Position numbers and translations under genes: made by a program. The notes beneath the pieces are model-generated. The model was given only the letters and a program-made list of their open reading frames with translations, was not told the origin of the DNA and searched no databases. Shown here in pieces: positions 18,290 through 36,636 of a DNA stretch of 64,000 nucleotides (position 1 is its first letter; every line of letters starts with the position of its first letter). This DNA is from Planctomycetota bacterium (GTDB taxonomy: Bacteria; Planctomycetota; UBA1135; UBA2386): positions 4,160,001 through 4,224,000 of the forward strand of contig JBKAGP010000001.1 in assembly GCA_046290465.1 (NCBI GenBank), written 5' to 3'.

Positions 18290-18351
18290 TCGCGTCCCCG
18301 CTCCAGCCACGCACACGCACTGTTCGCTACAGCCAACATTCAGGATCGTTC

Positions 18352-19086
18352 ATGAGTCACGATGATCACCACGCGGTAACGATCCCGGCCCCGGGGCCGG
18401 AGTTCGTCCCGCACGAGGTGGCGCACCACTTCAACACGCCGGTTCAGGAGTTCCAGGCGGGCAAGCTCGGCTTCTGGCTGTTCCTCGCCACGGAAATCCT
18501 GCTCTTCGGCGGACTGTTCGCTGCCTACTTCTACTACCACGAGATGTACCCCGAGACGTTCGTGCTCGGCGGCAAGCAGCTCGACTGGCAGCTCGGCGCC
18601 CTCAACACGTCGGTGCTGCTGCTGAGCTCGTGGACGATGGCGATGGGCGTGCGTTCGGCGCAGACCAGCCAGAAGAAGAAGACGCTGATGTTCCTGGGGC
18701 TCACCGTGCTCGGCGCGGCGATCTTCATGGTCATCAAGTTCTTCGAGTACAAGGCGAAGAACGAGCACGGCCTGATCGAGTTCGCGCACCTGTTCGAGCC
18801 CTACAACGACGCGACCGGGCAGCTGCCGTGGTTCACCGACCACGACAACGTCATGGCCGGCGTGCCGCACGGCCACATGTTCTTCGCGATCTACCTGACG
18901 ATGACCGCGATCCACGGCCTGCACGTCGTCATCGGCGCCGGCCTGATCATCTGGGTCATGGTCGGCACCGCGAAGGGTCGCTTCCACGCCGGCTACTACA
19001 TGCCCGTCGACCTGGTCGGCCTCTACTGGCACCTCGTCGACCTGATCTGGATCTTCCTGTTCCCGCTGCTCTACCTGGTCCCCTGA
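18352..19086 (+). CDS. coxC: Cytochrome c oxidase subunit III
   Basis: GFWLFLATEILLFGGLF, NTSVLLLSS, HGLHV, GLYWHLVDLIWIFLFPLLY. Confidence 0.95.
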   Translation: MSHDDHHAVTIPAPGPEFVPHEVAHHFNTPVQEFQAGKLGFWLFLATEILLFGGLFAAYFYYHEMYPETFVLGGKQLDWQLGALNTSVLLLSSWTMAMGVRSAQTSQKKKTLMFLGLTVLGAAIFMVIKFFEYKAKNEHGLIEFAHLFEPYNDATGQLPWFTDHDNVMAGVPHGHMFFAIYLTMTAIHGLHVVIGAGLIIWVMVGTAKGRFHAGYYMPVDLVGLYWHLVDLIWIFLFPLLYLVP

Positions 19087-19502
19087 TGTCCGACGCACAC
19101 GACACCCACGCCGATGGCCACGGCCACGGCGAACTGGACATGGGTCACCACCATGTCTCCAGCTCGGCGATGTTCTTCAGCGTCCTGGTGGCGCTGCTGT
19201 TCCTGACCTTCATCACGGTCGCCGTCGCGCAGTTCGACTTCGGCTCGGCCAACATGCTGATCGCGATGGGCATCGCCGCCGTCAAGGCGTCGCTGGTCAT
19301 CGCCTTCTTCATGCACGTGAAGTGGGACACCGCGATCAACAAGATCGTGTTCCTGAGCTCGTTCCTGTTCTTGTCCCTGCTGTTCGTGTTCACCCTGGCC
19401 GACCTGTTCACGCGTCGCCTGGACCACGAACTGCACACGACCAAGTCGCCGGTCGACAAGCAGTGGACGCACCCGAGCAACCTCCCGGACGGCGGTCACT
19501 AA
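19086..19502 (+). CDS. coxD: Cytochrome c oxidase subunit IV
   Basis: Three TM helices, IAAVKASLVIAFFMHVKW; start overlaps the coxC stop. Confidence 0.9.
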   Translation: MSDAHDTHADGHGHGELDMGHHHVSSSAMFFSVLVALLFLTFITVAVAQFDFGSANMLIAMGIAAVKASLVIAFFMHVKWDTAINKIVFLSSFLFLSLLFVFTLADLFTRRLDHELHTTKSPVDKQWTHPSNLPDGGH

Positions 19503-19503
19503 A

Positions 19504-22362
19504 CTGCACGCCGCCTACCTGCACACTCGCCAGCCCGCCGAAGCGCGGATCGCACTGTGGTCCGACGACGGCGTCGAGGCCCTGCGGTCGACGCTGCCCG
19601 CAGAGGTCCTGGCCAACGCGACGCCCGTCGACGCGCAGCTGCTGCTGCCGTCCGAGGAAGCGACGCTGCGGCCGCTGACGGCGATCCCCGACACGGAGAA
19701 CGACGAGGAGCGCAGCCAGTCGCGGATCGCGCCGGCGCTGTGGACGATCCCGGCGCTCGGCGTGCCGCTGGCCGACGCGGTCCCGTGGCTGGCGTCGCTG
19801 GATCCGGCGACCCAGCCGCCCGCGATGCGGCTGTTCGCGGCCGCCAGCCAGCTGGTCGACAAGATGGTGCGCCGCGGCGACTTCGCGCCCGCCCCCGAAG
19901 GCGTGCTCGCGTTCGTGCCGTTCTGGAAGCCGGAGACCCAATGGCTGGTCGCGGCGCTCGCCGACCTGGTGCCGGGCAACCTGTGCACCGCGCGCGTCGC
20001 CGTGCCGGACGACCCGGTCTACGCGGTGACCCAGCGCAACCTGATCGTCAGCTTCATCGGCCACGCGCTCGATCGGCACGCGACCACGCTCGATGCCGCA
20101 GCCGGCCACGAGACCGCCGACCGTCTGCCGCGCGAGTTCTGGCAGACGCCGATGACGCCGGTGCTCGAGATCCTGGTGCCCGACCAGCCGCTCGAAGAAG
20201 GCGCGCCGTGGGGCCTGTCGATCCTGGTCCGCCCGGTGCCGGGCATCGCCTACACCGAGACCATCGAGAGCCTGCACCAGCGCCTGCAGGCGTCGCCGTT
20301 CCGCAACGAGATCGCCGGCGAGAGCGTGCACAAGGTCGAGGACATCCTCGACCGCGTCGCCGACAAGCTGCCCGCCCTGCGCCGCGCGCGCAACCTCAGC
20401 GACGGTCGCGCCAGCCTGACCCGTCAGGAGCTCGACCAGATCCTCGACCACATCCCGCTGCTGGAGACCGAGGGTTTCGAGATCACCCTGCCGGGCATCG
20501 AGTCGATGCAGCGCCTCAGTGCGCGCGTCGCGATCGTCGAGGGCAAGGGCCAGGACAACGACCCGCGGCCGTGGTTCGAGTTCAAGTGGAGCCTCGCGCT
20601 CGGCGACCAGGAGCTCGACCAGTCGCAGTTCGAGCAGCTGGTCGACGCCAAGACGCCGCTGGTGTTCATCGACCGCCGGCCGGTGCTGCTGTCGCCCAAG
20701 GACCGCGAAGCGCTCAAGGACTTCAAGAAGCGCATGCTCGACGGCGGCGAGCGCATCAGCTTCTTCGAAGCGCTGCGTCTGCGCCTCGGCGGTGCCTCGC
20801 ACCTGCACGGCCTGGCGATGGAGTCGATCGCCAGCACGCCGAGACTCGAGCACCTGCTGCAGAACCTCGAACGGGCCCGCGCCGTCGAGGACCGCGTGGT
20901 GCCGGTCGAGTTCCACGGCGAACTGCGTCCCTACCAGGGCCGCGGCCACGCGTGGATGCACTTCCTCGTCGACCAGGGCTTCGGCGCGTGCCTCGCCGAC
21001 GACATGGGTCTCGGCAAGACGATCCAGGCGATCACGGTGATGCTGGACTGGCGCAAGCAGCGCAACAGCAAGACCGCGATCCTGATCGTCTGCCCGGTCT
21101 CGGTGCTCGGCAACTGGCGTCGCGAGCTGCTCAAGTTCGCGCCGTCGCTGCGGGTCTCGCTGCACCACGGCAAGGGCCGCGCCAACACGCCCGAGTCGTT
21201 CACCGCAGTCGTCACCGAGCACGACATCGTGCTGACCAGCTACAACCTGCTGCAGCGCGACGAGGAGCTGATGCAGGAGGTCACGTTCGACGGCGTGGTG
21301 CTCGACGAGGCGCAGAACATCAAGAACCCGACCACGCGGCAGTCGCGCGTCGCGCGCACGCTCAAGGGTCACTTCCGGCTGGCGCTTACCGGCACGCCGC
21401 TCGAGAACCGGCCGCTCGACCTGTGGTCGATCATGGACTTCCTCAACGAGGGCCTGCTCGGTTCGCGCACGCAGTTCACGCAGACGCTCGAGCACCCGAT
21501 CGTCAAGCAGCGCCGCCAGGGGTCGATGTCGGCGCTGGCGCGGCTGGTGCGGCCGTTCGTGCTTCGCCGCCTCAAGACCGACCCGGAGATCGTCGCCGAC
21601 CTGCCGGAGAAGACCGAGCAGATCGTCACCGCGACGCTCAGCCGCGAGCAGGCGATCCTCTACGAGTCCGTCGTGCGCAAGGGCCTGCAGGAGGTCGAGA
21701 AGGCCGGCGAAGGCATCCAGCGCCGCGGCGCGATCCTGACCACGCTGCTGCGCCTCAAGCAGGTCTGCAACCACCCGGCGCACTACCTGATGGACGGCAG
21801 CTCGCTGCCGAGCCGTTCGGGCAAGCTCGACTACCTGTCGCAGATGATCGAGGAGGCCGTCGAAGAGGGCGACCGTTCGCTGATCTTCACGCAGTTCAAG
21901 GAGATGGGGTCGATCCTCAAGACCCACTTCGAGAACCTCTACGGCCAGACGGTCCTGTTCCTGCACGGCGGCATCCCGCAGAAGGAGCGCGACAAGATGG
22001 TGACCGACTTCCAGGAGGCGCGTCCGGAAGGTCCGAAGCTGTTCGTGCTGTCGCTCAAGGCGGGCGGCACCGGCCTCAACCTGACCGCGGCCAACCGCGT
22101 GTTCCACTTCGACCGCTGGTGGAACCCGGCGGTCGAGGACCAGGCGACCGACCGTGCGTTCCGCATCGGCCAGCAGCGCAACGTGTTCGTGCACAAGTTC
22201 GTCTGCAGCGGCACGCTCGAGGAGCGCATCCAGCAGATGCTCGATCGCAAGCGCGAGGTCGCCGACGGCCTGCTCGCCGCCGGCGAGAACTGGATCACCG
22301 AGCTCAGCAACGACGACCTCAAGCGTCTGCTGACGCTCGATCGCAAGGAGGCCCTGGCGTGA
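19504..22362 (+). CDS. SNF2-family helicase/ATPase (probable CTG start at 19504; first canonical start is GTG 19762)
   Basis: LRPYQ, LADDMGLGKT, LDEAQNIKN, LTGTPLEN, LKQVCNHP, GLNLTAA, WWNPAVEDQATDRAFRIGQ; the frame reads as protein from 19501. Confidence 0.92.
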   Translation: MHAAYLHTRQPAEARIALWSDDGVEALRSTLPAEVLANATPVDAQLLLPSEEATLRPLTAIPDTENDEERSQSRIAPALWTIPALGVPLADAVPWLASLDPATQPPAMRLFAAASQLVDKMVRRGDFAPAPEGVLAFVPFWKPETQWLVAALADLVPGNLCTARVAVPDDPVYAVTQRNLIVSFIGHALDRHATTLDAAAGHETADRLPREFWQTPMTPVLEILVPDQPLEEGAPWGLSILVRPVPGIAYTETIESLHQRLQASPFRNEIAGESVHKVEDILDRVADKLPALRRARNLSDGRASLTRQELDQILDHIPLLETEGFEITLPGIESMQRLSARVAIVEGKGQDNDPRPWFEFKWSLALGDQELDQSQFEQLVDAKTPLVFIDRRPVLLSPKDREALKDFKKRMLDGGERISFFEALRLRLGGASHLHGLAMESIASTPRLEHLLQNLERARAVEDRVVPVEFHGELRPYQGRGHAWMHFLVDQGFGACLADDMGLGKTIQAITVMLDWRKQRNSKTAILIVCPVSVLGNWRRELLKFAPSLRVSLHHGKGRANTPESFTAVVTEHDIVLTSYNLLQRDEELMQEVTFDGVVLDEAQNIKNPTTRQSRVARTLKGHFRLALTGTPLENRPLDLWSIMDFLNEGLLGSRTQFTQTLEHPIVKQRRQGSMSALARLVRPFVLRRLKTDPEIVADLPEKTEQIVTATLSREQAILYESVVRKGLQEVEKAGEGIQRRGAILTTLLRLKQVCNHPAHYLMDGSSLPSRSGKLDYLSQMIEEAVEEGDRSLIFTQFKEMGSILKTHFENLYGQTVLFLHGGIPQKERDKMVTDFQEARPEGPKLFVLSLKAGGTGLNLTAANRVFHFDRWWNPAVEDQATDRAFRIGQQRNVFVHKFVCSGTLEERIQQMLDRKREVADGLLAAGENWITELSNDDLKRLLTLDRKEALA

Positions 22363-23069
22363 GCAGCACCGGCGAACGCAAGTCCGTCTCGCTCGGCGAG
22401 CGCTGGCGCCGCGAGGCGACCCGCGACATCGACGACCAGCGGCTGGCCGCGGCGCTCGAGGCGCTGCCGAGCATCCGCAAGCCGATGGTCCGGATCCGCG
22501 CCGGCGGCATCAACGCCGAGATGGAAGGCGCGATGGGCTCGATCCACGAGGTCAGCCTGCAGATCCGCACGCTGCCGATGAAGGACTGGCCGACGCTGAT
22601 CCGCGTGCTGCGTCGCAGCAAGTCGATCATCGAGGCGCTCAGCCAGGCGCGCGTGCCGCGTTCGTTCGACCGCCTGGTCGCGCGCATCATCGGCGAGCCG
22701 CTGTTCCCGGACGCGCGTAGCGTCACCTACGGGTGTTCGTGCGACCTCCAGGAGGAGCCGTGCCGCCACGTGCTCGCGCTGCACGAGCTGTTCGCGCGGC
22801 GTCTCGACGAGAAGCCGTGGGAGCTGTTGATGCTGCGCGGCGTCGACCTCCACGACACCCTGACCAAGGTCAAGCAGACCGAGCCCGACGCCGACCTGCC
22901 GCCGCTCGCCTACGGTGTTCCCGAGGAGCCGGTGCTCTACCCGGACGCCGAGGACGCCGACCTCGACCAGAGCCTCGGCATGCCGGCCCTGCGCTGGCTC
23001 ATCGGCGACGTCTCCCCCCGAGCCGTCGACGCCGCCCTCCAAGCCCTCGCCGCCCTCCCCGAAAAGTAG
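22359..23069 (+). CDS. SWIM zinc-finger protein
   Basis: CSCDLQEEPCRH SWIM motif; ...DEKPWELLMLRG; AAGGAGG SD and GTGA overlap with the helicase. Confidence 0.85.
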   Translation: MSSTGERKSVSLGERWRREATRDIDDQRLAAALEALPSIRKPMVRIRAGGINAEMEGAMGSIHEVSLQIRTLPMKDWPTLIRVLRRSKSIIEALSQARVPRSFDRLVARIIGEPLFPDARSVTYGCSCDLQEEPCRHVLALHELFARRLDEKPWELLMLRGVDLHDTLTKVKQTEPDADLPPLAYGVPEEPVLYPDAEDADLDQSLGMPALRWLIGDVSPRAVDAALQALAALPEK

Positions 23070-23505: not shown

Positions 23506-23711
23506 GGCGGGGGCTTGGAGCAATCGTCGTGCCACCGGGATTCGCCACGATCCGCCCGGGGGATCCCCGGAGAACGGTCGGCGGGTGACACCATCCCGAC
23601 AAGGCGCTGTCGGGGCACCGGCGTCACGAGCTTTTTCTCGCCACGGATCTGGCGGATCGGGCCGCGGCTTCCCCTCAGGGGGACGTGATCCCAAACTGTC
23701 AGACCTGTGCC

Positions 23712-24320
23712 GTGAGCGAGCCGACCGAAAGCCCCACGCTGGCGCGACTTCGCGCCGCCAAGTCCGGTGATCTGGACGCCTACGACGAGCTGTTCGCCAA
23801 CACCGTCGACCGGCTGCAGCTGTTCTTGCGGGTGCGGCTCGGCCAGGGTCTGCGCCTCGCCGAGGAGTCGGCCGACCTGCTGCAGGAGACCTACCTCGCC
23901 GCGCACCAGGCGTTCGCCAACTTCGAGATCCCGGCGACCGGCGACCCAGAACGCGCGTTCTTCGGCTGGCTCTGCACCATCGCCGAGAACTGCATCCGCC
24001 GCCGCGCCGACCACCACGGCGCGCAGAAGCGTCGCCCCAAGGGCAAGCTGCAGCGCATCAGCCGGATCATGGAGGGCGTCTCGGCGGGCTCGCTCGGCCC
24101 CGCCACCCGCGCCGAACGCCTCGACCAACGCCATCGCCTCGCGCAGGCGATGCTGCAGCTCGAAGACGGTCCGCGCCAGCTACTCGTGCTGCACCACTTC
24201 GAGAACCTGAGCGGCGCCGAGATCGCGCGCCGCACCCAGCGCAGCGAGAGCTCGGTGCGCCGCGACCTCGCCGCAGCCGTCCGCCAGCTCGGCGCCGCGC
24301 TGAAGGAGGTCGACGCGTGA
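23712..24320 (+). CDS. ECF sigma factor (Planctomycete kinase-associated type)
   Basis: GDLDAYDELF, SADLLQETYLAAHQAF...FFGWLCTIAEN, region 4 LSGAEIARR. Start 23712 or 23685; GTGA-coupled to the kinase. Confidence 0.88.
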   Translation: MSEPTESPTLARLRAAKSGDLDAYDELFANTVDRLQLFLRVRLGQGLRLAEESADLLQETYLAAHQAFANFEIPATGDPERAFFGWLCTIAENCIRRRADHHGAQKRRPKGKLQRISRIMEGVSAGSLGPATRAERLDQRHRLAQAMLQLEDGPRQLLVLHHFENLSGAEIARRTQRSESSVRRDLAAAVRQLGAALKEVDA

Positions 24321-26677
24321 GCACTCCGATCGAAGACGTCGTCGACGCGATCCGGGGGCAGCTGCTGCCCGAGCCCCCCGGCCCCGACGACTCGAAGCAC
24401 CTCGCCGCCCGCCTCGACGCCGACCCCGCCGTCGTCGCCGACTGCGTGCGCGGCCTGCGCGCGCTGCAGTTCGCGCTCGACGAGGACGAACAGCGCGCCG
24501 GCGCCGACGACCTCGCGCCGCCAAAGCTGCCCGACGACTACGAGGTGCGCGACGAACTCGGCCGCGGCGGCATGGGCGTCGTCTACCGCGCCTGGCAGAC
24601 GTCGCTGCAGCGCGAACTGGCCGTCAAGGTCCTGCGACCCGGCGAGCTGGTGTTCGGCGCCGCGATGAACCGCTTCCGTCGCGAGGCGCAGCGGCTCGCC
24701 AACCTGCGCCACCCGCACATCGTCTCGGTGCACGAGGTCGGCGAGGCCGACGGCCACGTCTACTTCACGATGGACCTCGTCGACGGCGGCACCATGCGCG
24801 AACTGCTGCAGCGCCGCCGCATGAACGTCACCCAGTCCGTGCGCCTGATGCTGCAGGTCTGCGAGGCGATCTCGTACGCACACGGCCAGGGCGTCGTGCA
24901 CCGCGACCTCAAGCCGGCCAACATCCTGATCGCCGAGAAGGAGGCCGGCCAGCTCGACGCGTTCGTGGTCGACTTCGGCCTGGCGCGCGACCTCAACACC
25001 GCCGGCGGCTACACGCTGACCGGCCAGGTGATCGGTACACCCGGCTACATGAGCCCCGAACAGGCGCTCGGCCAGACCGACCGCATCGGCGAACGCAGCG
25101 ACGTCTACGCGCTCGGCGTGATGCTCTACGAGTGCCTGACGCGCAAGGCGCCGTTCGCCGACCGCGCGCTGGTGCACACGCTGCAGGCCATCGTCGACGA
25201 ACAGCCGCAGCCCGCGCACGAGGCCAACCGCAACGTCCCGATCGAGCTCAGCGTCATCTGCCAGAAGGCGATGGCCAAGAAGCCGACGCAGCGGTTCGCG
25301 ACCGTGCAGGCGATGATCGAAGAACTGCGCCGCTTCACGTCGGGCGAGCCGATCCGGACGCCGCGGCCGACCGCGCTCGGCAACGCCGGCCAGTTCGTGC
25401 GACGCCACGCGCGCAAGGTGCTGTGGACCGTGCCGCTGCTGCTCGTGTGGGCGTGGCTGCAGAGCAACCACCACGCCGAACGCAACGCGCTGATCGCGCA
25501 GGGCAATGCGCTGTTCGAGCAGGGCAACTACACCGGCGCCGCGGCGTGCTTCGACAAGGGCACGTCGTTCGGCCACGAACTTCCCGACGACCCGCTGACC
25601 TGCATCCGCTACGCGTCGTCGCTGACCCAGGTCGCCGGCCAGCGCTACACCCGCCGGTTCGACATCAACGACGGCTACGACCAGATGCTGCACGCGAGCC
25701 TGCGGGCCGCGCGCGTCGTGCAACGATGGGCGGCGCCGTTCGTCGACGGCGATCGGGTCGACACCGTCATCCCCGCCGAACCGTCGCTGGAGCAACGCGC
25801 GCTGATCGAATGGGTGCGTGCCAAGGCGTGGACCAGCTCGGTCGTGCTCACCCAACCCCAACACAGCGACGCCTGGCTGTGGCCCGATCCGCAGGGCGTG
25901 CGCCACGCGAGCTGGCCGCTGCTGTTCCGACAGCACGCGATGAACCCGGTGCTGCACCAGAACCCCGAACTGGCGCGCGGCCTGGTGCTCGAAGCGTTTG
26001 CCAAGGCCGAGTGGGGCAACGATGCGTATCAAGACCTCGAGAAGCGCGCGCGGTGGCCGGTGCCGATGTTCTCGACCACCGATCGCGCGTTCGAACAGCA
26101 GCTCGTCGACTACGTGCGCACCGAGTCGCCGCTCGGCCGCACTGCGTCGCTGCTGCTGCAGCGTGCTTCGTGCGTGCCGCTGGTCGGCCTCGAGGTCCGC
26201 CGCGACTTCAAGAACATGCGCCGCTGGCTCGACGCCCACGCCGACCGCTGGGAACGCCTCGATCGCATGGACCCGCTCGAGCGCCGGGTCGCGCTCGTGC
26301 AGTTGCTCGCCGACTACCAGGAGGCGCCGCCGCGCGGCTCGCCATACCTGAGCAACCGCCTGAAGCGGTTCTTCCACGACGCGACCGGCAAGGAGCTGGT
26401 CCCGCGCGTCGGTGGTCCGGATCCGATGCCCGCGGGCGACGACCCGCGCGTCTGGATCCTCGACGCCGTCGGCTGGCAGGTGCATCCGGACTCGCTCGAC
26501 CCCCGCCAGACGCTGCGCCAGTGGCGGCGCGAGCGCGAACGGATCGCCGCCGGTCAGCAGGACCGCGGCCGCGACGGCCACTACGCGTCGCTGCTCGACC
26601 TGCTGGTGCCGCGCGACGTCACCCGGCCGCTCGCCGCCGACATCGACGCGTGGGCCGCGGTGATCGCGTCGCTGTAG
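24317..26677 (+). CDS. Membrane Ser/Thr protein kinase
   Basis: GRGGMGVVY, AVK, HRDLKPAN, DFG, GTPGYMSPEQ; TM segment, then uncharacterised C-terminal region. Confidence 0.93.
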   Translation: MSTPIEDVVDAIRGQLLPEPPGPDDSKHLAARLDADPAVVADCVRGLRALQFALDEDEQRAGADDLAPPKLPDDYEVRDELGRGGMGVVYRAWQTSLQRELAVKVLRPGELVFGAAMNRFRREAQRLANLRHPHIVSVHEVGEADGHVYFTMDLVDGGTMRELLQRRRMNVTQSVRLMLQVCEAISYAHGQGVVHRDLKPANILIAEKEAGQLDAFVVDFGLARDLNTAGGYTLTGQVIGTPGYMSPEQALGQTDRIGERSDVYALGVMLYECLTRKAPFADRALVHTLQAIVDEQPQPAHEANRNVPIELSVICQKAMAKKPTQRFATVQAMIEELRRFTSGEPIRTPRPTALGNAGQFVRRHARKVLWTVPLLLVWAWLQSNHHAERNALIAQGNALFEQGNYTGAAACFDKGTSFGHELPDDPLTCIRYASSLTQVAGQRYTRRFDINDGYDQMLHASLRAARVVQRWAAPFVDGDRVDTVIPAEPSLEQRALIEWVRAKAWTSSVVLTQPQHSDAWLWPDPQGVRHASWPLLFRQHAMNPVLHQNPELARGLVLEAFAKAEWGNDAYQDLEKRARWPVPMFSTTDRAFEQQLVDYVRTESPLGRTASLLLQRASCVPLVGLEVRRDFKNMRRWLDAHADRWERLDRMDPLERRVALVQLLADYQEAPPRGSPYLSNRLKRFFHDATGKELVPRVGGPDPMPAGDDPRVWILDAVGWQVHPDSLDPRQTLRQWRRERERIAAGQQDRGRDGHYASLLDLLVPRDVTRPLAADIDAWAAVIASL

Positions 26678-26692
26678 GCCGGCCCCGCGAAT

Positions 26693-26852
26693 CGGACCGA
26701 GCACGTGGTCCGTACAGAGAACGAGAAGGCTGCGCCCGGCGGTCGTTCCAAAGAGGTCGAGAAGGTGTTCCGGCGCAGCCTTCTCACCTCCAACTACGCC
26801 GGCAGGTCGTCGATGTTGCGAAACGGCGCGAAGTTTTCGCAGCCGTTTCGCA
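26693..26852. other. Cluster of hairpins between the convergent kinase and rtcB (terminator and/or structured RNA)
   Basis: CGGACC/GGTCCG (26693-26712); perfect 14-bp IR GAGAAGGCTGCGCC (26723-26736, 26772-26785); TGCGAAACGGC/GCCGTTTCGCA (26817-26852). Confidence 0.6.
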
Positions 26853-26940
26853 GCCGTTTCCCAGGTGTTCCATGGGGGCCGAACCCGACGGCCCGACGCG
26901 CGGTCAGGCCCCGCGAACGAAGCGCCGGTTCCGCGCGTGT

Positions 26941-28026
26941 TCAGCCGCCCTTGTAAGACAGCACCGGTGCCAGGGTGCGCACGATGCGCACCAGCTCCCG
27001 CTGCGCACGCATCACCTTGCCGATGTCCCGGTAGGCCCGAGGCGCCTCGTCGCAGAGCCTGCGCGCCAGCGATCGGTCGAAGGCGACGCCGTGCAGCTGC
27101 CGTTCGAGCTGCTGCGGCGAGATCCGGCGCATCGCCTCCCCACGCGGCAGGCGACGCCCCGCCCCGTGCGAGCTGGACCGCAACGCCGCCGCGCAGCCGC
27201 GACCTTCGACGTGGAACGTCGCGGTGCCCATCGAACCCGGGATGATGCCGCGCTCGCCTGCGTCGGCCGAGCATGCGCCCTTGCGATGGACCATCAGGGA
27301 CTCCCCGTCGTGCACTTCGTGACGCACGAAGTTGTGGGTCACGTCGAACCAGGTCGACCAGTAGAGCTCGACGCCGAACCGCTCGCGCAACCGCTGCTCG
27401 ACGGCCACCGCCATCGCCCGCCGGCTCGCCTGCGCAAATCCGACCGCGAGGTCGTGGTCGCGCAGGTAGCCTGCGGCCTCGCCACCGCGCAGGTCGACCA
27501 GCCCGCGCCGGCCGCGCAGATGGTGGTCCCGGATCGCCGGCCCCAGCGCTCGCGAACCGCTGTGCACCGCCAGCCACAGCTCGCCGCATTCGTCGGCCTG
27601 CAGCTCGACGAAGTGGTTGCCACGCCCGAGCGTCGCAAACTGCACCCGCGCATCGCGCACGACCCGGCGCCGCAAGCCGGCGTCGAGCCGTTCTACGTCC
27701 GGCGCATCGCGCGCCCGGGCATGGCGCACGATCGGCACGGCGTGCTTCAGGTCTCCGAGTACCGCCTCGGCAGCCGGAGCGTCCAGCAGGCCGACGTCCG
27801 CACCGATGCGGGCCGTCGCCATGCCGCAGCCGATGTCGCCACCGACCGCCTGCGGGTAGACGATGGCATCGGTCGCGAGCACGGTGCCGACGCAGACGTC
27901 GCGCGACAGGTGCACGTCGGGCATGACCGCAACGCGCCGCACGCCCGGCGCCTCGGCCAGACGTTGCAGCGCGCGCTCGACCTGACGATCGAGCGGCTCG
28001 CTGAGCCAGCTGCGGATCTCGGTCAT
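26941..28026 (-). CDS. rtcB: RtcB-family RNA ligase
   Basis: MPDVH, GDIGCGM, TLGRGNHFVE, VHSGSR, HN, HRKGA, IIPGSMG, SSHGAGR, DEAP, YKG; GGAGGTGA SD. Confidence 0.95.
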   Translation of the reverse strand: MTEIRSWLSEPLDRQVERALQRLAEAPGVRRVAVMPDVHLSRDVCVGTVLATDAIVYPQAVGGDIGCGMATARIGADVGLLDAPAAEAVLGDLKHAVPIVRHARARDAPDVERLDAGLRRRVVRDARVQFATLGRGNHFVELQADECGELWLAVHSGSRALGPAIRDHHLRGRRGLVDLRGGEAAGYLRDHDLAVGFAQASRRAMAVAVEQRLRERFGVELYWSTWFDVTHNFVRHEVHDGESLMVHRKGACSADAGERGIIPGSMGTATFHVEGRGCAAALRSSSHGAGRRLPRGEAMRRISPQQLERQLHGVAFDRSLARRLCDEAPRAYRDIGKVMRAQRELVRIVRTLAPVLSYKGG

Positions 28027-28367
28027 GCGTCACCTCCCTCGGGAACGATCGTGAACGACAGTTGCGGCGCCTTGCCGCGGTGGATCTCCGCGGCGACGGC
28101 ACTTCGCAAGAACCCACGGGCCCGGTCGAGCGCGTCGAGCGCAGCGACCAGTCCGTGACGACAAGGGTCGACGAATCCGACCAGCAGGTGGCGATCGCCA
28201 CCGATGGCCTCGACGAACTCGACCCGCAGGTCGAGCAGCAACGGATCCGACGTCTCGCCCAGCGCGAACGCCAACGCGTCCTTCACCTGGGCACACAGTT
28301 GGAGGGTCTTCTGTACGGACCGCCCCCCGCGGTCATGAGCATCTGGCATCTGCAAGTCGGGACGCAC
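28023..28367 (-). CDS. RbfA-like (ribosome-binding factor A fold) paralog
   Basis: About 114 aa; LDALDRARGFLRSAVAAEIHRGKAPQLSF resembles the RbfA C-terminal GFLR...P.L.F pattern; ATGA overlap with rtcB. Start uncertain. Confidence 0.75.
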   Translation of the reverse strand: MRPDLQMPDAHDRGGRSVQKTLQLCAQVKDALAFALGETSDPLLLDLRVEFVEAIGGDRHLLVGFVDPCRHGLVAALDALDRARGFLRSAVAAEIHRGKAPQLSFTIVPEGGDA

Positions 28368-28414
28368 CGGTAGCGCGTCGAACAGGGTCCGGGATAGCGA
28401 ACGGGTCGACTTCA

Positions 28415-28500
28415 GCCCCGGCAGGCGCGCGGACTCAGATCAGTCCAGCGCAGACCGGGGCGCGTACACAGCTGTGCAGATGCTTCGCATGGTTGGCTCC
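28415..28500 (-). promoter_or_regulatory. Leader ORF (28440-28490, MRSICTAVYAPRSALD) whose stop lies in an attenuator-like hairpin
   Basis: GGAG SD before ATG 28490; mRNA stem GCCCCGG/CCGGGGC, GCGC/GCGC, GGACU/AGUCC with the UGA at the apex; in frame with the rbfA-like gene. Confidence 0.6.
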
Positions 28501-28561
28501 AGTGGGGTGGGGACGGTAGCCCGCCTTTTCCGATGCGCAACCCCCTCGCTACGATGGCCGC

Positions 28562-30280
28562 ATGCAGGGAACCACCAGGAGAGCGATCGTGTCCGCCTGC
28601 GCGTGGGCCGCCCTCGCGACGTCCGCGACGGCGCAGGAAGCCACGCGATGGCTGCGGGACGTCGGCGCTGCCGACCTGCGCGTCAGCGAGGCCGCCGAAC
28701 GCAAGCTCGTCGCGATGGGCGCCAAGGCGGTGCCGTTCGTCGAACGCGCGATGGACGAGTGGGACGACCAGAAGGGCGAGGGCTACAACCGCTGCGCGGC
28801 GCTGCTCCGCGTGATCCGGCTGCTCGGCCCGGACGCGGCAGGGCTGTCGTCACGGCTGAGGCAGGTCGGGGCCGACTCGGGCAACCTCGGTCCCGAGATC
28901 TACCACGTGCTGGCCGGGCTCGAGCCGTTTGCCGGGGACAAGAACTGGCACGAGATGATGCACTTCCTGCATCACCAGGACCCGGAGCGGGTCAAGCAAG
29001 GCTTCGTCGGCTACATCCGCATGTATGCGCGCGTGCACTGCGGCGACGTCACCGACGCCGACCGGATGATCCAGGTGCTGCGCGAGGACAAGTCCGGCGC
29101 GCGCGAAGCGGCGGCCGAGGCGCTCGGACGGCTGCGCCATCCGCGCACGGTCGAACTGCTGCACGCGCGCCTGCGGCAGCGCACGCCGGCGGTCGACGCC
29201 GACCAGTTGACGCACAACGGCTTTCCGGTGCCGTTCGACGACGAGTTCGCGTTCCGCGCCAGCGAGGTGATGATCCAGCTCGCGCCCAACGACGAGCGGT
29301 GCGTGATCGCCTACGCCAACCGCGCGCTGCACCATCCGCACGCGACGGCGCGCCGGGAGGCGCTCAACCGGCTGGCGGCGTTCGGGCCGATGGCGGCGGA
29401 GGCGACGCCGGAGCTGATGCGGATCGCCGAGGGCGACGACGATGCCCTCGCGATCGAGGCGCTCAAGGTGCTCGGCATGGCCGGCAAGGCGGTCGCTCCG
29501 TTCGCCGTGCGGGTGCAGGCGATGACCCGCAGCGAGACCAAGGTCCGCGCCCGGCTCGCGGACGGCCTGATCGCGCGGCTGCGGGCGATGGGGGTCGAGG
29601 TCGCGGACGCCGTCGACGACGGCCCCGACGAGGGTCTCGCCGCGCTGCGCAAGACGATCGAGGCGCTCGACGACGACGCGACACCGGCGATTCGCAAGGA
29701 GGTGCTCGCGGACCAACGCAGCTGGGCGCTGCTGGTCGATCGCTACCGACGCAAGCGCCACGACGCGCCCGACGTCGTGTTCGAACTGCTGATGGACCTG
29801 GCCTGGCAACAGCCGAAGGAGCAGCGCGACCTGGTCCGCCATGCCGTCGCGACCCTCGGCGGCGACCACTGGAGCGCGTCGGTGATGTCGAGCACGTCGC
29901 ACGGCAACCAGAAGACGCGCGCGATCCACCGACGCACCTACGCGCACCTGTCGGTCGACCCCGAGGCCGACCTCGGTGCGCTCGTCGGTCTGCTCGACGC
30001 CAAGAACGCGCCGGTGCGGCTACGCGCCGTCGAACTGCTGTCGGCGCGGCGCGCCGAGTGGGCGGTCGGCAAGCCCGAGCACGAACGCGTGCAGACGGCC
30101 CTGCGGGCAGCCACGCTGGCCAAGGCACCCAAGCAGAGCGTGTACGAGCTGTCGGCCAACCACAACACCTCGCTCGACGGAACCGACCTGACCGACGAGA
30201 TCCAGGCGGCCGCCAAGGCGGCACTGGCGCCGGCGGACGACGGAAGCATCGACAAACGAAAGCCGCGAGGACCGACCTAG
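28562..30280 (+). CDS. Secreted HEAT/PBS-lyase repeat protein
   Basis: Signal peptide ending ATA-Q; repeats such as AREAAAEALGRL, ARREALNRLAAFG, VRLRAVELL. Confidence 0.75.
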   Translation: MQGTTRRAIVSACAWAALATSATAQEATRWLRDVGAADLRVSEAAERKLVAMGAKAVPFVERAMDEWDDQKGEGYNRCAALLRVIRLLGPDAAGLSSRLRQVGADSGNLGPEIYHVLAGLEPFAGDKNWHEMMHFLHHQDPERVKQGFVGYIRMYARVHCGDVTDADRMIQVLREDKSGAREAAAEALGRLRHPRTVELLHARLRQRTPAVDADQLTHNGFPVPFDDEFAFRASEVMIQLAPNDERCVIAYANRALHHPHATARREALNRLAAFGPMAAEATPELMRIAEGDDDALAIEALKVLGMAGKAVAPFAVRVQAMTRSETKVRARLADGLIARLRAMGVEVADAVDDGPDEGLAALRKTIEALDDDATPAIRKEVLADQRSWALLVDRYRRKRHDAPDVVFELLMDLAWQQPKEQRDLVRHAVATLGGDHWSASVMSSTSHGNQKTRAIHRRTYAHLSVDPEADLGALVGLLDAKNAPVRLRAVELLSARRAEWAVGKPEHERVQTALRAATLAKAPKQSVYELSANHNTSLDGTDLTDEIQAAAKAALAPADDGSIDKRKPRGPT

Positions 30281-30435: not shown

Positions 30436-31842
<1,407 letters not shown>

Positions 31843-31843
31843 G

Positions 31844-32128
31844 TTACTTCTTCTCCTTCTTCTTGAACGAGCCGAGCATGCGGTCCGTGACCATGTAGCC
31901 GCCGATCACGTTGACCATCGCGAGCGTGATCGCGAGGAACGCGACCGCCTGCACCAGGAAGCCCTCACCGCGCGACGCGTAGATCGCGCCGACGATGGTG
32001 ATGCCCGAGATCGCGTTGGAGCCGCTCATCAGCGGCGTGTGCAGCGTCGGGGGCACCTTCGTGATCAGCTCGAAGCCCAGCAGGGCCGCGATCACGAAGA
32101 TGAAGATGATGGTGAAGTACTGTTCCAT
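31844..32128 (-). CDS. pntAB: NAD(P) transhydrogenase alpha, membrane part
   Basis: VPPTLHTPLMSGSNAISG, NVIGGYMVTDRML. Confidence 0.95.
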   Translation of the reverse strand: MEQYFTIIFIFVIAALLGFELITKVPPTLHTPLMSGSNAISGITIVGAIYASRGEGFLVQAVAFLAITLAMVNVIGGYMVTDRMLGSFKKKEKK

Positions 32129-32131
32129 CGA

Positions 32132-33262
32132 TCAGCTCTCCAGGGCCTTGGCAGTGGGTTCGTGACGAACGGCGCCATCGTGCACGATGCTGACCGCACC
32201 GAGGATCTCGCCCTCGATGTCGAACGTCATCGTGCCTTCCTTGTCGATGAACTCGCCGAGGAACGCAATCACGTTGCGCGCATACATGCGCGACGCGTCG
32301 TTGGCGACCTGCGCCGGCAGGTTGGTGTCGCCGATGATCGTGACGCCGTCGACGACGACCGTCTCGTCCGGCTTGCTGCCGACGACGTTGCCGCCCTGGC
32401 CGGCCGCCATGTCGACGATCACCGAGCCCGGCGCCATCGCCTTGCGCATCTCCTCGGTCACCAGCACCGGCGCCTTCCTGCCCGGCACCAGCGCGGTCGT
32501 GATCAGCACGTCCGACGACGAGATGTGCTTGGTCAGGATCTCGCGCTGCTTCTTGAGGAACTCCTCGCCGGCCTCCTTGGCGTAGCCGCCGGAGGTCTCG
32601 GCGTCCGGCGGCGAGCCGGTGTCGACGAACTTGCCGCCGAGCGACTCGACCTGCTCCTTGACCGCGGGGCGGATGTCGTTGGCCTCGACCACCGCGCCGA
32701 GCTTCTTGGCGATCGAGATCGCCTGCAGGCCGGCGACGCCGGCGCCGAGCACCAGCACCTTGGCGGGCGTGATGGTGCCGGCAGCCGTCATCATCAGCGG
32801 GAACATCTGCGGCAGGTTGACCGCCGCCAGCAGCACCGCCTGGTAGCCGCCGCAGCTCGCCTGCGAGCTGAGGATGTCCATCTTCTGCGCGCGGGTGATG
32901 CGCGGCATGAACTCGAGGCCGATCGCGGTCACCTTCGCGTCGCGCAGCGCCTTGATCGAGTCGAGTGCGTTGCCCGGCGTCAGCGTGCAGACCAGCAGCG
33001 ATCCGGCCTTCTGCTGCGAACACAGCTCCGGCGTCGGGATCTGGATACCGAGCACGATGTCGGCCGAACCGCGAGCGGCGGCGTCGACCAAAGTCGCGCC
33101 CGCCTCCTCGAAGTCCTTGTCGGAGAAGCCTGCCGCGAGGCCAGCGCCTCGCTCTACCTGCACGGTCAGGGACAGCTTCTGCATGCCCTTGACGGTCTCG
33201 GGAATCGCAGCGACGCGCGTCTCGCCCGCCGCCGATTCCTTCGGCACGAAGATCACAACCAT
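32132..33262 (-). CDS. pntAA: NAD(P) transhydrogenase alpha, NAD(H)-binding part
   Basis: PKE...ETRVA, PRITRAQKMDILSSQ, GAGVAGLQAI, TTALVPGRKAP. Confidence 0.95.
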   Translation of the reverse strand: MVVIFVPKESAAGETRVAAIPETVKGMQKLSLTVQVERGAGLAAGFSDKDFEEAGATLVDAAARGSADIVLGIQIPTPELCSQQKAGSLLVCTLTPGNALDSIKALRDAKVTAIGLEFMPRITRAQKMDILSSQASCGGYQAVLLAAVNLPQMFPLMMTAAGTITPAKVLVLGAGVAGLQAISIAKKLGAVVEANDIRPAVKEQVESLGGKFVDTGSPPDAETSGGYAKEAGEEFLKKQREILTKHISSSDVLITTALVPGRKAPVLVTEEMRKAMAPGSVIVDMAAGQGGNVVGSKPDETVVVDGVTIIGDTNLPAQVANDASRMYARNVIAFLGEFIDKEGTMTFDIEGEILGAVSIVHDGAVRHEPTAKALES

Positions 33263-33463
33263 AGGGGTCCTTGCCTCGGTCCTTTCGCGGATGAAGTGCG
33301 ACAAGAGAAACAGAACCCGCCGCCGCGCGCCACGTGTTCCTACGGTGCCGCATCAATTCCGAACGCGACGCGCGTCGCCGGCCGAGGCACGCCCAGCGCC
33401 GCGCCGAATCCGTTGCGTTTTGTTACGGCACCGCACGAACACGAACGGCTAGTCTGGGCGCCC

Positions 33464-34330
33464 GTGAGAAGCTTCGTAGGTGATCTCGCGGATCGCATTC
33501 TCGGTGGCCAGGCACCGATCGTCATCGGACTCGACCCGCGCCTCTCGGCGTTCCCCGAACGTCTGCTCCCCGGCGCCGCGCCGGCGGCCCGCATCGTTGC
33601 GTTCTACCGTGAGGCGCTGCCCGTCATCGCCCGACACGCGCCGGCGGTGAAGCCCAACATCGCGTTCTTCGAGGCCTACGGTTCCGACGGCTACCGCGCC
33701 TACGAGGAGGTCTGCAAGCTCGCCCACGAGAACCAGCTGCTGATCGTCGGTGACGTCAAGCGCGGCGACATCGGCAGCACCGCCGAGGCATACGCCGAGG
33801 GCCACTTCCGCATCGCCGACTCGCTGACGCTGCACCCCTACCTCGGCAGCGACTCGGTGGCGCCGTTCCTCAAGTGGTGTCCCCGGGACGGCGGCGGCCG
33901 CGGCGTGTTCGTGCTGGTCCGCACGAGCAACCCCGGCGCCAAGGACCTCCAGGATCTGCGAATCGGTGACGAACCCCTCTGCGACAAGGTCGCGCGAGCG
34001 GTGAACGACTGGGGCGCCACGCTCGAGCAGGAGCACGGCTACCACGCGGTCGGTGCGGTGGTCGGCGCGACCTGGCCCGAAGAACTCGCCCGCCTGCGCC
34101 AACTCCTTCCCAATTCGTGGCTTCTGCTCCCGGGCGTCGGAGCCCAGAGGGGCAGGGTCGAGGACCTCGCGGCGGCGTTCGACGACCGCGGCCTCGGCGC
34201 CCTGGTCAACCAGAGCCGCGGCGTGATGCAGTGCTTCTCCCCGGCGAACGATGACTGGCTCGATCGTATCGAGCAGGCCTGCGCCACCTTCGCGGCCGAC
34301 TGCCGCGCCGTCGCCGTCCCCAACAGCTGA
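33464..34330 (+). CDS. pyrF: Orotidine-5'-phosphate decarboxylase
   Basis: IGLDP, KPNIAFFE, DVKRGDIGST, RTSNPG, GAVVGAT, PGVGAQ, NQSR. Confidence 0.93.
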   Translation: MRSFVGDLADRILGGQAPIVIGLDPRLSAFPERLLPGAAPAARIVAFYREALPVIARHAPAVKPNIAFFEAYGSDGYRAYEEVCKLAHENQLLIVGDVKRGDIGSTAEAYAEGHFRIADSLTLHPYLGSDSVAPFLKWCPRDGGGRGVFVLVRTSNPGAKDLQDLRIGDEPLCDKVARAVNDWGATLEQEHGYHAVGAVVGATWPEELARLRQLLPNSWLLLPGVGAQRGRVEDLAAAFDDRGLGALVNQSRGVMQCFSPANDDWLDRIEQACATFAADCRAVAVPNS

Positions 34331-34339
34331 GCCCCGCCC

Positions 34340-35911
34340 TTGCCTCCCCAAGTGACCTCGACCCTGCGCCACATCTCGTTCCGCCACCTCGGCACCTCGG
34401 AGGTCCACCAGCGCTTCCTCGAGGACGACCGCGACCTCGGCAACTTCCTCGGCATGCGGGCGCGCAACGTGGCCGAGCTGTTGAAGCGCGCGCCGACCGG
34501 GGCCGGGCGGGTGGTCCCGCGCGAACAGCTGGTCGCGTCGCTGCGCGCCTACGCCGAACGTCACGACGCGCCGCCCGAGGTCCTGGCCAACGTCGAGGCG
34601 CTGCTCGACCCGGAGACGCACGTGATCGTCACCGGCCAGCAGCCCGGTCTGCTCGGTGGCCCGCTGTTCTGTCTGCACAAGGCCGCTACCGCGATCCGGC
34701 TGTGCCGCGAGATCGAGGCGCAGGGCGGGCCGCGCTGCGTGCCGCTGTTCTGGAACCACAGCGACGACCACGATCTCGAGGAAGGCAACCGCGCGTTCCT
34801 GGTCAACCAGAACCAGGAGGTCCAGCGCTTCCGCCTCGACCTCACCCGACACAACGAGTCGCTGCGCAGGATCCACGTCGGTCGCGACGTCGAGCGCCTG
34901 GTCGAGGAGATCACGCCGCTGCTGCCGGAGACCGAGTTCCACCAGGGCGTCGTCGACACGATCACGCCCAAGCACCCGGACGACACGCTCGGCGACCTGC
35001 AGGCGCGCATGATGTTCGAGGTGTTCGGCCGCCACGGACTGATCGTGATCGAACCGCGCGACCTGCCCGACAGCGCGTTCGCGCCGCTCGAGCGCTGGTG
35101 GACCCGGTCCGAGGAGATCCGCGAGAAGGTCAAGCAGACCTGCGACGACCTGCACGACCTCGGCGTCGACATCACGCTCGACCCCGGCGCGACGATGATG
35201 TTCGCGATGAACGGCGACCGCCGCGAACCGCTGGCCGACGGCGAGGAGTTCGGCGAGCGCGGCAACCTGTCGCCGGGCGTGCTGCTCCGGCCGCTGTGGC
35301 AAGACGCGTGCCTGCCGACGATCGGCTTCGTGGTCGGCCCGGGCGAACTCAGCTACCTCGCCGCGGTCGCGCCGCTCTACCGCCTGCTCGGCGTGCCGCA
35401 GCCGGTGTTCGTGCCGCGCTCGTCGCTGACCTTGGTCGAACCGTCGATGCAGCGGCTGCTGCAGCGATTCGAGCTGGACCTGACCGACCTCGGCGAGACC
35501 CCCGAGCGGCTCGCCGAGAAGCTGCTGCAGAACGACGAGGAAGGCGGCGGCGACATCGAGGACCAGCTCGACGACGTCAAGCATCGCCTGCGCACCGAGC
35601 TCGAGAGCGTCGAGAAGAAGCTCAAGGCGCTCGACGCGTCGATGATGGGGGCGCTCGACCGCGCGCGCACCAAGTCGATCGAGGAGCTCGACCGCCTACA
35701 GAACAAGGTGCGCAACGCGCGGCAGAACCGCGAGGGCACCGGCATCAAGCAGCTGCGGCGGCTGTGCAACTCGCTGCGGCCGCGGGCGCGCATCCAGGAG
35801 CGCGTCTACGGGCCGGTGACCTACCTCAACGCCTACGGGCCGCGGCTGGCCGACGAGCTGATCACGGCGGCGGATCCGTTCCGGATCGAGCACGGGGTGC
35901 TCGAGCTGTGA
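34340..35911 (+). CDS. bshC: Bacillithiol cysteine-adding enzyme
   Basis: IVTGQQPGLLGGPL, PLFW...DHDLEE, SPGVLLRPLWQD, GPGELSY, coiled coil, QER. Confidence 0.88.
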   Translation: MPPQVTSTLRHISFRHLGTSEVHQRFLEDDRDLGNFLGMRARNVAELLKRAPTGAGRVVPREQLVASLRAYAERHDAPPEVLANVEALLDPETHVIVTGQQPGLLGGPLFCLHKAATAIRLCREIEAQGGPRCVPLFWNHSDDHDLEEGNRAFLVNQNQEVQRFRLDLTRHNESLRRIHVGRDVERLVEEITPLLPETEFHQGVVDTITPKHPDDTLGDLQARMMFEVFGRHGLIVIEPRDLPDSAFAPLERWWTRSEEIREKVKQTCDDLHDLGVDITLDPGATMMFAMNGDRREPLADGEEFGERGNLSPGVLLRPLWQDACLPTIGFVVGPGELSYLAAVAPLYRLLGVPQPVFVPRSSLTLVEPSMQRLLQRFELDLTDLGETPERLAEKLLQNDEEGGGDIEDQLDDVKHRLRTELESVEKKLKALDASMMGALDRARTKSIEELDRLQNKVRNARQNREGTGIKQLRRLCNSLRPRARIQERVYGPVTYLNAYGPRLADELITAADPFRIEHGVLEL

Positions 35912-36636
35912 GTCGGTTCGATGCGTCGGCGCTGCCGCAGTGCGACGTGCTCGCGTTCGGGCCGCACCCGGACGACGTCGAGATCGGCTGCGGCGGCACG
36001 CTGCTGCTGATGAAGCAGGCCGGCATGAAGGTCGCGATCGTCGACTGCACGCGCGGCGAGATGGGCTCGCGCGGCACCGCCGCCGACCGCGACGCCGAGG
36101 CCGCGGCCGCGGCCAAGGCGCTCGGCCTCGACGCGCGCGGCAACCTCGGCCTGAAGGACACCGGCATCCGCGACGACGACGCGTCGACCGACCTGGTGGT
36201 CGCGGCGATGCGCGCGGTGCGGCCGAAGGTCGTGTTCGCTCCGCACGAGCGCGACGTGCACCCCGACCACACCAACGCCGCCAAGCTCGTCGGCCGCGCG
36301 CACTTCCTCGCCGGCCTGCGCAACTACCGCCCGGAGCTCGGAGCGGCGCACCGCGCGCAGACCTTGTTGCGCTACCCCGGCAACCAGCTGGTCGAACCGA
36401 CATTCGTGGTCGACATCTCGTCGGTCGCCGACCAGAAGGTCGACGTCGTGCGCTGTTACGCCTCGCAGATCGCCCCCGACGAGAAGGGCCACCTGGTGCA
36501 GGGGCTCGACTTGTTCGACCGCACGGTCGTTCGGCAGCGCGCGATGGGGGCGATGGTCGCCGCAGTCGCCGGCGAGGGCTTCTGCCACGACGGGCCCATC
36601 AAGGTGTCGGACCTCGGCTGGCTGATCGGCGGCTAA
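35908..36636 (+). CDS. bshB1: Bacillithiol deacetylase (PIG-L/LmbE family)
   Basis: HPDDVEIGCGG, TRGEMGSRG, HPDH, FLAGL, VVDIS, YASQ; GTGA overlap with bshC. Confidence 0.88.
   Translation: MSRFDASALPQCDVLAFGPHPDDVEIGCGGTLLLMKQAGMKVAIVDCTRGEMGSRGTAADRDAEAAAAAKALGLDARGNLGLKDTGIRDDDASTDLVVAAMRAVRPKVVFAPHERDVHPDHTNAAKLVGRAHFLAGLRNYRPELGAAHRAQTLLRYPGNQLVEPTFVVDISSVADQKVDVVRCYASQIAPDEKGHLVQGLDLFDRTVVRQRAMGAMVAAVAGEGFCHDGPIKVSDLGWLIGG

Follow-up and report, generated by a model that had tools for sequence, protein, structure and literature searches.

A conserved gene pair of an RbfA paralog and an RtcB RNA ligase in Planctomycetota, preceded by a leader open reading frame and possibly involved in repair of the small ribosomal subunit

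Organization of the locus

We identified a gene pair on the minus strand of a Planctomycetota genome in which a paralog of the 30S assembly factor RbfA is followed by an RtcB RNA ligase. The window, to which plain coordinates refer, is the whole stretch of 64,000 nucleotides that was analysed. The two genes and the ribosome binding site at their junction are:

26941..28026, minus strand: RtcB RNA ligase of 361 amino acids; its clade sits behind an RbfA paralog and the catalytic positions are intact
28023..28349, minus strand: RbfA paralog of 108 amino acids with a type II KH fold; the C-terminal helix seen in E. coli RbfA is missing
28030..28037, minus strand: strong Shine-Dalgarno sequence of rtcB, inside the last codons of the paralog gene

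The stop codon of the paralog gene is shared with the start codon of rtcB in an ATGA overlap (28026-28023), and the sequence GGAGGTGA at 28037-28030 is complementary to the 16S 3' end from the same genome at all 8 nt. The ATGA coupling and the strong Shine-Dalgarno sequence claimed in the initial annotation are thus both present on the minus strand. A GGAGG-like motif and an NTGA overlap are found at this junction in most close relatives. The start of the small gene had been placed at GTG 28367, which is six codons too early; the database protein and the aligned homologs all begin at the Met encoded by ATG 28349.

The pair is flanked by a convergent Ser/Thr kinase gene behind an ECF sigma factor gene and by a divergent HEAT-repeat gene, both unrelated to the pair, and in agreement with the initial annotation no prfH, rtcA, rtcR, rsr or archease gene is adjacent. 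The ECF sigma factor gene overlaps that of the kinase, which has TPR-like repeats (window 23685-26677); pairing of ECF sigma factors with Ser/Thr kinases is frequent in planctomycetes. Open reading frames in 16631-23069 and 30436-36636 presumably encode cytochrome oxidase subunits, a SNF2 helicase with a SWIM partner, transhydrogenase subunits, PyrF and bacillithiol-type BshC and BshB1, to judge from their resemblance to these proteins. Between the ends of the kinase gene and rtcB lies an intergenic hairpin element with 13-bp arms (26710-26800; region z -4.27), of which one second copy is present in the genome (G000:C1:1811264-1811354, 77% over 92 nt). This small repeat or RNA has no Rfam match and was not seen in related loci, and an Rfam scan of 26400-28800 gave nothing above the gathering score. 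In one metatranscriptome two near-identical contigs cover 27861-28225 and none covers the flanking genes, a weak sign of expression given that carry-over of DNA is possible.

The small protein is a paralog of RbfA

The small protein is an RbfA paralog and not the housekeeping copy. It scores below the RbfA cut-offs, with 21.1 bits against the Pfam RBFA model PF02033 (cut-off 34.7), 17.9 against TIGR00082 (cut-off 51.15) and 21.7 in a further comparison (cut-off 142). When a profile of the paralogs was compared with PDB sequences, RbfA chains were the top seven matches. The AlphaFold model (pLDDT 89) has the type II KH fold with the helix-kink-helix and superposes on RbfA of T. thermophilus (2dyj) with a TM score of 0.71-0.85, a Z score of 13.1 and an rmsd of 1.6 Å over 89 residues, so that the divergent RbfA fold proposed in the initial annotation is borne out despite the scores below the Pfam and TIGR cut-offs. 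The canonical rbfA gene is found elsewhere in the genome (G000:C1:1307051) in the order nusA-infB-DUF503-rbfA, which places the small gene outside the housekeeping context, as had been supposed. Both copies were found in five further genomes in one search, and a quick tree resolves 28 paralogs from 12 canonical RbfA proteins as distinct clades with a support of 97. The paralog family comprises 713 representatives at 50% identity (E ≤ 1e-10).

The contacts of RbfA with the 30S subunit have been described in two species. RbfA of E. coli lies in the mRNA exit channel, where its AxG motif and Phe78 hold 16S nucleotides 1531-1535 (PMC8177701). In S. aureus, the Asp-Pro-Arg loop specifically reads the 16S 3' end, the α3/β3 loop goes between two rRNA bends, and β1/β2 faces h28 and the h44-h45 linker (PMC9917171). 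The initial annotation stated that RbfA binds 30S and displaces helix 44; the first part stands, and the second is a simplification, since in the newer structures RbfA sits in the exit channel, grips the 16S 3' end and helps h28 and h44 to mature (PMC8177701; PMC8201178).

Conservation of these residues was analyzed over 135 diverse paralogs. The equivalent of RbfA Arg80 is kept in 133 and that of Arg/Lys90 in 134 of them, Pro93 is present in 100%, and the α3/β3 loop has an extra, invariant Arg as well as a third basic residue; the basic α3/β3 loop and the RxxPxLxF domain end are retained in the family. A PAPDA-type family motif is found in β1/β2 and a near-invariant QLCxQ motif on helix 1. 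The residues that hold the 16S 3' end are less well kept. Compared to E. coli RbfA, the paralog studied here retains AxG (A77, G79), the stacking Phe78 (F80 here), Arg80 and RxxPxLxF, whereas over the 135 paralogs the positions of AxG and Phe78 are occupied by Ala in 81, by Gly in 104 and by F, Y or W in 61. Outside the family of this genome the counts are 9/17 (Ala), 11/17 (Gly) and 4/17 (aromatic) for paralogs paired with rtcB, and 7/20, 11/20 and 3/20 for solo paralogs. An apparent tendency of paired copies to keep AxGF better than solo copies disappears once the family of this genome is removed. In this protein and in most of the family a hydrophobic residue takes the place of the Arg of the Asp-Pro-Arg loop, and the C-terminal helix is mostly absent (tail of at most 15 residues in 108 of 131 paralogs); short-tailed canonical RbfA proteins occur too, including the T. 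thermophilus protein of 95 amino acids and those of loci L050 and L053. Set against RbfA as defined by PF02033 and TIGR00082, the paralog shares the type II KH fold, AxG-Phe in this member, Arg80 and the domain end, and differs in its scores, its separate clade, its presence as a second copy outside the infB operon, the altered DPR loop, the QLCxQ and PAPDA-type motifs and the lack of the C-terminal helix.

As the basic loop is kept while the 3'-end-binding residues are eroded, we infer that the paralog still docks on the 30S subunit near the h44-h45 linker, with the state of the 16S 3' end mattering less to it than to RbfA. The same residue data fit a change of RNA target. The paralog could be a repurposed KH-type RNA adaptor that brings RtcB to non-ribosomal RNA such as tRNA halves, mRNA or small RNA, which is what the eroded DPR and AxGF motifs, the new QLCxQ on helix 1 and a C-terminal helix that most members have lost would suggest. 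The substrates of E. coli RtcB1 and RtcB2 are moreover mutually exclusive (PMC9304027), and a new RtcB clade may have a third kind. We nevertheless hold such an adaptor to be unlikely, given that conservation of the basic loop that faces the rRNA equals that in RbfA itself, that canonical RbfA proteins with short tails exist and that, for this locus only, no RNA gene was detected nearby with Rfam.

The paired RtcB is an intact ligase by sequence and forms a clade of its own

The paired RtcB scores 237.9 bits against PF01139 (cut-off 27) and has D37, D64, C67, N137, H138, H155, H231, H287, E327, Y332 and K359 as equivalents of the catalytic residues of the P. horikoshii enzyme, which we take to be the metal ligands, the guanylylated His and the residues of the GTP site. 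These positions are invariant in all 39 paired RtcB proteins that were compared. The intact catalytic motifs reported in the initial annotation are thus present at every position, and judged by its sequence the paired RtcB is an intact ligase. Each partner carries a family-specific Cys (C45 / C19), which is invariant in the 39 paired RtcBs and present in 97% of the 135 paralogs.

To relate the enzyme to the PrfH-linked clades, as proposed in the initial annotation, a quick tree of 49 rows was made. The 19 paired RtcBs in this tree group together with an SH-aLRT of 98, and RtcB1, RtcB2 and another RtcB group are each distinct from them with a support of 100; the tree gives no order among the groups. 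The paired RtcB lies outside RtcB2 and scores below the RtcB2 cut-offs, with 156.7 against TIGR03073 (cut-off 271.8) and 194.2 bits against NF007153 (cut-off 407). A second RtcB, which belongs to the RtcB1 clade, is encoded elsewhere in the genome (C1:4306294-4307514) with an RtcA-like gene after it (pair span G000:C1:4305270-4307514). Searches of the genome for prfH gave two matches, both under the TIGR03072 cut-off, and no archease gene and no MazF-family gene were found in it. Compared to the RtcB1 of rtcBA-rtcR operons, which is reported to act on the MazF-cut 16S 3' end by re-ligating it (PMC5416887), the paired RtcB shares the catalytic residues and a candidate substrate region next to the RbfA site; it differs by its separate clade, by being about 45 residues shorter and by having no rtcA or rtcR beside it, the rtcB-rtcA pair being located elsewhere in the genome.

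RtcB2 was found in 4 of 301 genomes of the phylum. Two genomes have an RtcB2 in addition to the RbfA-paired RtcB (G091/L182 and G155/L183); prfH adjoins the L182 copy, and the match in G155 has an internal TGA. The presence of both enzymes in one genome hints at different jobs. In two relatives (L025, L035) rtcB is interrupted, by sequencing error or by decay.

All 24 RtcBs of the clade in the phylum sample have the paralog

In close relatives rtcB directly follows the paralog gene in 20 of 21 loci, and the remaining locus has an interrupted start of rtcB. For the wider survey both queries were run against one even set of 401 genomes of the phylum. In these genomes 24 RtcBs score above 210 bits against this RtcB, and every one of them has the paralog upstream, 23 directly and one with a SpoU methylase gene in between, whereas none of the six next-ranked RtcBs that were checked has it. 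Three of the 24 paralogs, too diverged to be among the strong matches, were identified through their RtcB. The pair (24/401 genomes) is commoner in the phylum than RtcB2. The paralog is solo in 14 of 38 genomes, in four of which this query detects no RtcB at E ≤ 1e-20; one further paralog copy in G042 lies outside this count. The link is one-sided, all 24 RtcBs of the clade occurring with the paralog and the paralog often solo, and the pairing is far beyond chance. The conserved pairing on which the initial annotation had made its proposal depend is therefore found.

Across 59 loci no other gene was found repeatedly next to the pair, and the surroundings shift. The codon overlap between the two genes is retained across many families. 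The single SpoU-family methylase gene between paralog and rtcB is at L110 475-1428 (G201:C77); if the enzyme methylates the repaired junction, it would echo Hen1-type sealing.

These data bear on two alternative explanations. Chance adjacency or a decaying remnant is extremely improbable: interruption of rtcB in two relatives (L025, L035) is what decay would produce, yet it stands against the 24/24 linkage, the invariant catalytic residues and the conserved promoter, leader and overlap. The two genes could also be co-regulated ribosome-stress genes whose products act independently, the paralog as a spare maturation or 30S-parking factor and RtcB as a general repair ligase. Solo paralogs occur in 14/38 genomes and have the same motif profile as paired copies, and the genome already has an rtcB-rtcA pair, so that redundancy is tolerated. 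We consider independent action quite unlikely, however, as the RtcB clade was never seen without the paralog and coupling by codon overlap extends across many families. Pairwise distances of the two proteins also correlate (r 0.90 over 39 loci), although shared descent alone yields such a correlation.

Named relatives of the paralog are nearly all from Planctomycetota. Carriers with a species name include Planctomicrobium piriforme, as its source labels P0277, which strongly matches the profile of the paired RtcB, and Zavarzinella formosa, whose record L045 contains a solo paralog. The paralog was not found in 301 genomes of the phylum of G431 or in 201 genomes of the phylum of G432 (E ≤ 1e-15 in both), the single match in the latter being a canonical rbfA, and a search of plasmids and phages with one family member as query gave no match. 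A solo paralog lies on a 6-kb contig (L048) labelled as the archaeon Nitrosotalea, which may be misbinned. No longer homologs that would represent fusions were found among 8000 candidates. Two candidate fusions were set aside: P0108, in which the paralog is joined to an RtcB1-type ligase by a linker of about 75 residues, on one Logan contig, and P0311, a fusion to the paired-type RtcB whose junction lacks the conserved domain end and looks like a frameshift.

A leader open reading frame precedes the pair

The initial annotation was right about the genes of the operon, but overlooked a conserved promoter and a leader open reading frame upstream of them. The features of this region are:

28535..28540, minus strand: candidate -35 hexamer (TTG type) of a sigma-70-like promoter, following the family pattern
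28513..28518, minus strand: candidate -10 hexamer (TA...T type), following the family pattern
28497..28500, minus strand: Shine-Dalgarno sequence GGAG of the leader; a similar motif is present in 25/25 family loci
28440..28490, minus strand: leader open reading frame of 16 codons, with its stop in the loop of a conserved hairpin
28475..28483, minus strand: 5' arm of a predicted long-range helix of 9 bp, in leader codons 3-5
28346..28354, minus strand: 3' arm of the predicted helix, covering the AUG of the paralog

A TTG/16-17 nt/TA...T pattern 21-31 nt before the leader start was found in 20 of 23 family loci; a stricter scan for the E. coli consensus promoter gave no match. The candidate promoter and the start of the divergent HEAT-repeat gene are no more than about 50 nt apart (28513-28562). 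An open reading frame of 15-21 codons led by a Shine-Dalgarno motif occurs 131-222 nt upstream of the paralog in 25/25 family loci, a count which includes one near-duplicate pair and in which the motif itself was part of the search rule. The paralog itself has no Shine-Dalgarno sequence in any of the 25 loci, which is ordinary, as only 367 of 2272 first-ATG open reading frames of the genome show one by the same crude rule.

The leader region is predicted to fold with an MFE of -77.5 kcal/mol (z -3.59) and to form the helix with nine perfect pairs. The U and G of the paralog AUG are paired to the leader with a probability of at least 0.87 in 20/25 family loci, and 90% of the helix cells are paired, against 15-44% when the helix is slid. 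RNAalifold recovers the start-burying helix together with a second hairpin around the leader stop (alignment positions 50-62 with 113-125). Covariation in the start-burying helix is weak, with one two-sided change that was matched by 46 of 500 shuffles; a second helix change in L036, seen by eye, was misplaced by the alignment. Differences at leader codon positions 1, 2 and 3 number 42, 76 and 28. As second positions vary most and third positions least, selection appears to act on the shape of the leader RNA and not on the peptide, in which a short motif may nevertheless be kept. The predicted structure suggests that the leader imposes translational control on the paralog.

More distant loci were searched for similar leaders. 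A short open reading frame with a Shine-Dalgarno motif was present in 16 of 33 loci, compared to 170 of 2258 genes (7.5%) of this genome, a one-genome control against loci that, being kin, are not independent. Pairing between leader and start above 0.5 was predicted in 4 of these 16, compared to 15 of 150 controls, which is not a significant excess (p 0.09). Searches with a profile of the leader detected neither another copy in the genome nor any matching sequence in the distant loci. Leaders of the erm type act by translational attenuation. The leader described here shares with them a short open reading frame with a Shine-Dalgarno sequence and RNA predicted to hide the next start, and differs in that the RNA structure seems to be kept rather than the peptide.

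Proposed function

RtcB enzymes join a 2',3'-cyclic phosphate or 3'-phosphate end to a 5'-OH end. We lean towards the view that the locus encodes an accessory, translation-controlled module for the repair of small subunits whose 16S rRNA is cut in the 3' minor domain, in h44 or the h44-h45 linker. The transcript would rest with the AUG of the paralog buried in the helix with leader codons 3-5; a ribosome at the leader start, present for longer if slow or stalled, would probably free this AUG, and translation of rtcB would follow by coupling. The paralog may then, with good probability, dock at the RbfA site on free 30S through its basic α3/β3 and β1/β2 loops, and would need an intact 16S 3' end less than RbfA does; RtcB would seal the 2',3'-cyclic phosphate or 3'-phosphate end of the cut 16S rRNA to the 5'-OH. 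Since RbfA binds beside the anti-Shine-Dalgarno sequence, we conjecture that surplus paralog lowers initiation on the leader and so shuts off its own synthesis.

Known substrates argue in favour of this view. RtcB2 repairs 16S rRNA cut at A1493/G1494 on free 30S (PMC9304027) and RtcB1 is reported to re-ligate the 16S 3' fragment released by MazF (PMC5416887), and both sites fall in the region bound by RbfA, which also has a role in h44 docking (PMC8201178). Against it counts that the paired RtcB is outside RtcB2, the clade for which specificity for the decoding site has been demonstrated, and that the genome yielded no MazF-family gene.

How the paralog would assist the ligase is a separate matter. 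In the initial annotation it was suggested to hold damaged 30S in a ligatable state, so that the enzyme could reach the cut fragment and an open h44, a role we find doubtful. A holder is not inherently needed, as RtcB2 alone repairs cut 30S (PMC13166195), and the holding step is further weakened by the poorly kept 3'-end-gripping residues and by the occurrence of the paralog without this RtcB in 14/38 genomes. Because RbfA grips the 3' end and aids maturation of h28 and h44, holding before ligation and refolding once the ends are sealed are equally plausible; that the paralog re-matures h28/h44 after sealing would still be a rather unlikely outcome.

A role of the pair in ribosome biogenesis, in which pre-16S ends are joined or circularised and no damage is repaired, was also considered. 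Archaea form circular pre-rRNA in an RtcB-dependent manner. RbfA itself acts in maturation, where it fixes the 16S 3' end (PMC8177701). The patchy presence of the pair (24/401 genomes), its shifting surroundings and the intact canonical rbfA fit an accessory role instead, and make biogenesis very improbable.

The repair module we favour resembles the RtcB2-PrfH operon (PMC9304027, PMC13166195, PMC9223846) in that two genes with overlapping codons encode a dedicated RtcB branch and a diverged translation-factor paralog. It differs in that the partner is an RbfA paralog placed upstream and not a release-factor homolog, in that its RtcB falls short of the TIGR03073 cut-off and does not group with RtcB2, and in that prfH was not found in the genome. 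By analogy the design would work like RtcB2-PrfH, but by subfamily, clade and the missing prfH the pair does not belong to that system. The initial annotation knew of no characterisation of the pairing, and in the literature searched, which lay outside the 2016 RNA-repair survey of Burroughs and Aravind and the supplement of PMC9304027, we likewise found no description of it, including in the parts consulted of PMC6514570 and PMC13247085; RbfA is not mentioned in the portions of the text and supplement of PMC6514570 that were covered. The RbfA paralog-RtcB pair is real, conserved and apparently undescribed, and a partner-dependent RtcB system.

RtcB2-PrfH is the dedicated ribosome-repair pair that we found described. 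In a bolder and rather unlikely reading, the locus is a self-contained circuit: the leader would sense, independently of its peptide, ribosomes stalled just after initiation and unmask a paralog that no longer recognises the intact 16S 3' end and so selects 30S cut in the 3' minor domain for its own RtcB clade. If true, this would add to RtcB2-PrfH another 16S repair system, of independent evolutionary origin and acting at a 30S step not covered by PrfH. The pair is directly testable, as it consists of two small soluble proteins for which toxin-cut 30S substrates are known, and E. coli K-12, in which rtcB2-prfH is deleted (PMC9304027), is available for this purpose. The outcome is also relevant to the rejoining of a cut 16S 3' end, both to whether it is possible and to what holds the fragment. 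A further RtcB clade whose members were in every case seen together with a re-purposed 30S assembly factor would demonstrate the recruitment of a biogenesis factor for repair in bacteria, and the RbfA paralogs, now mostly labelled RbfA or hypothetical, would gain a function.
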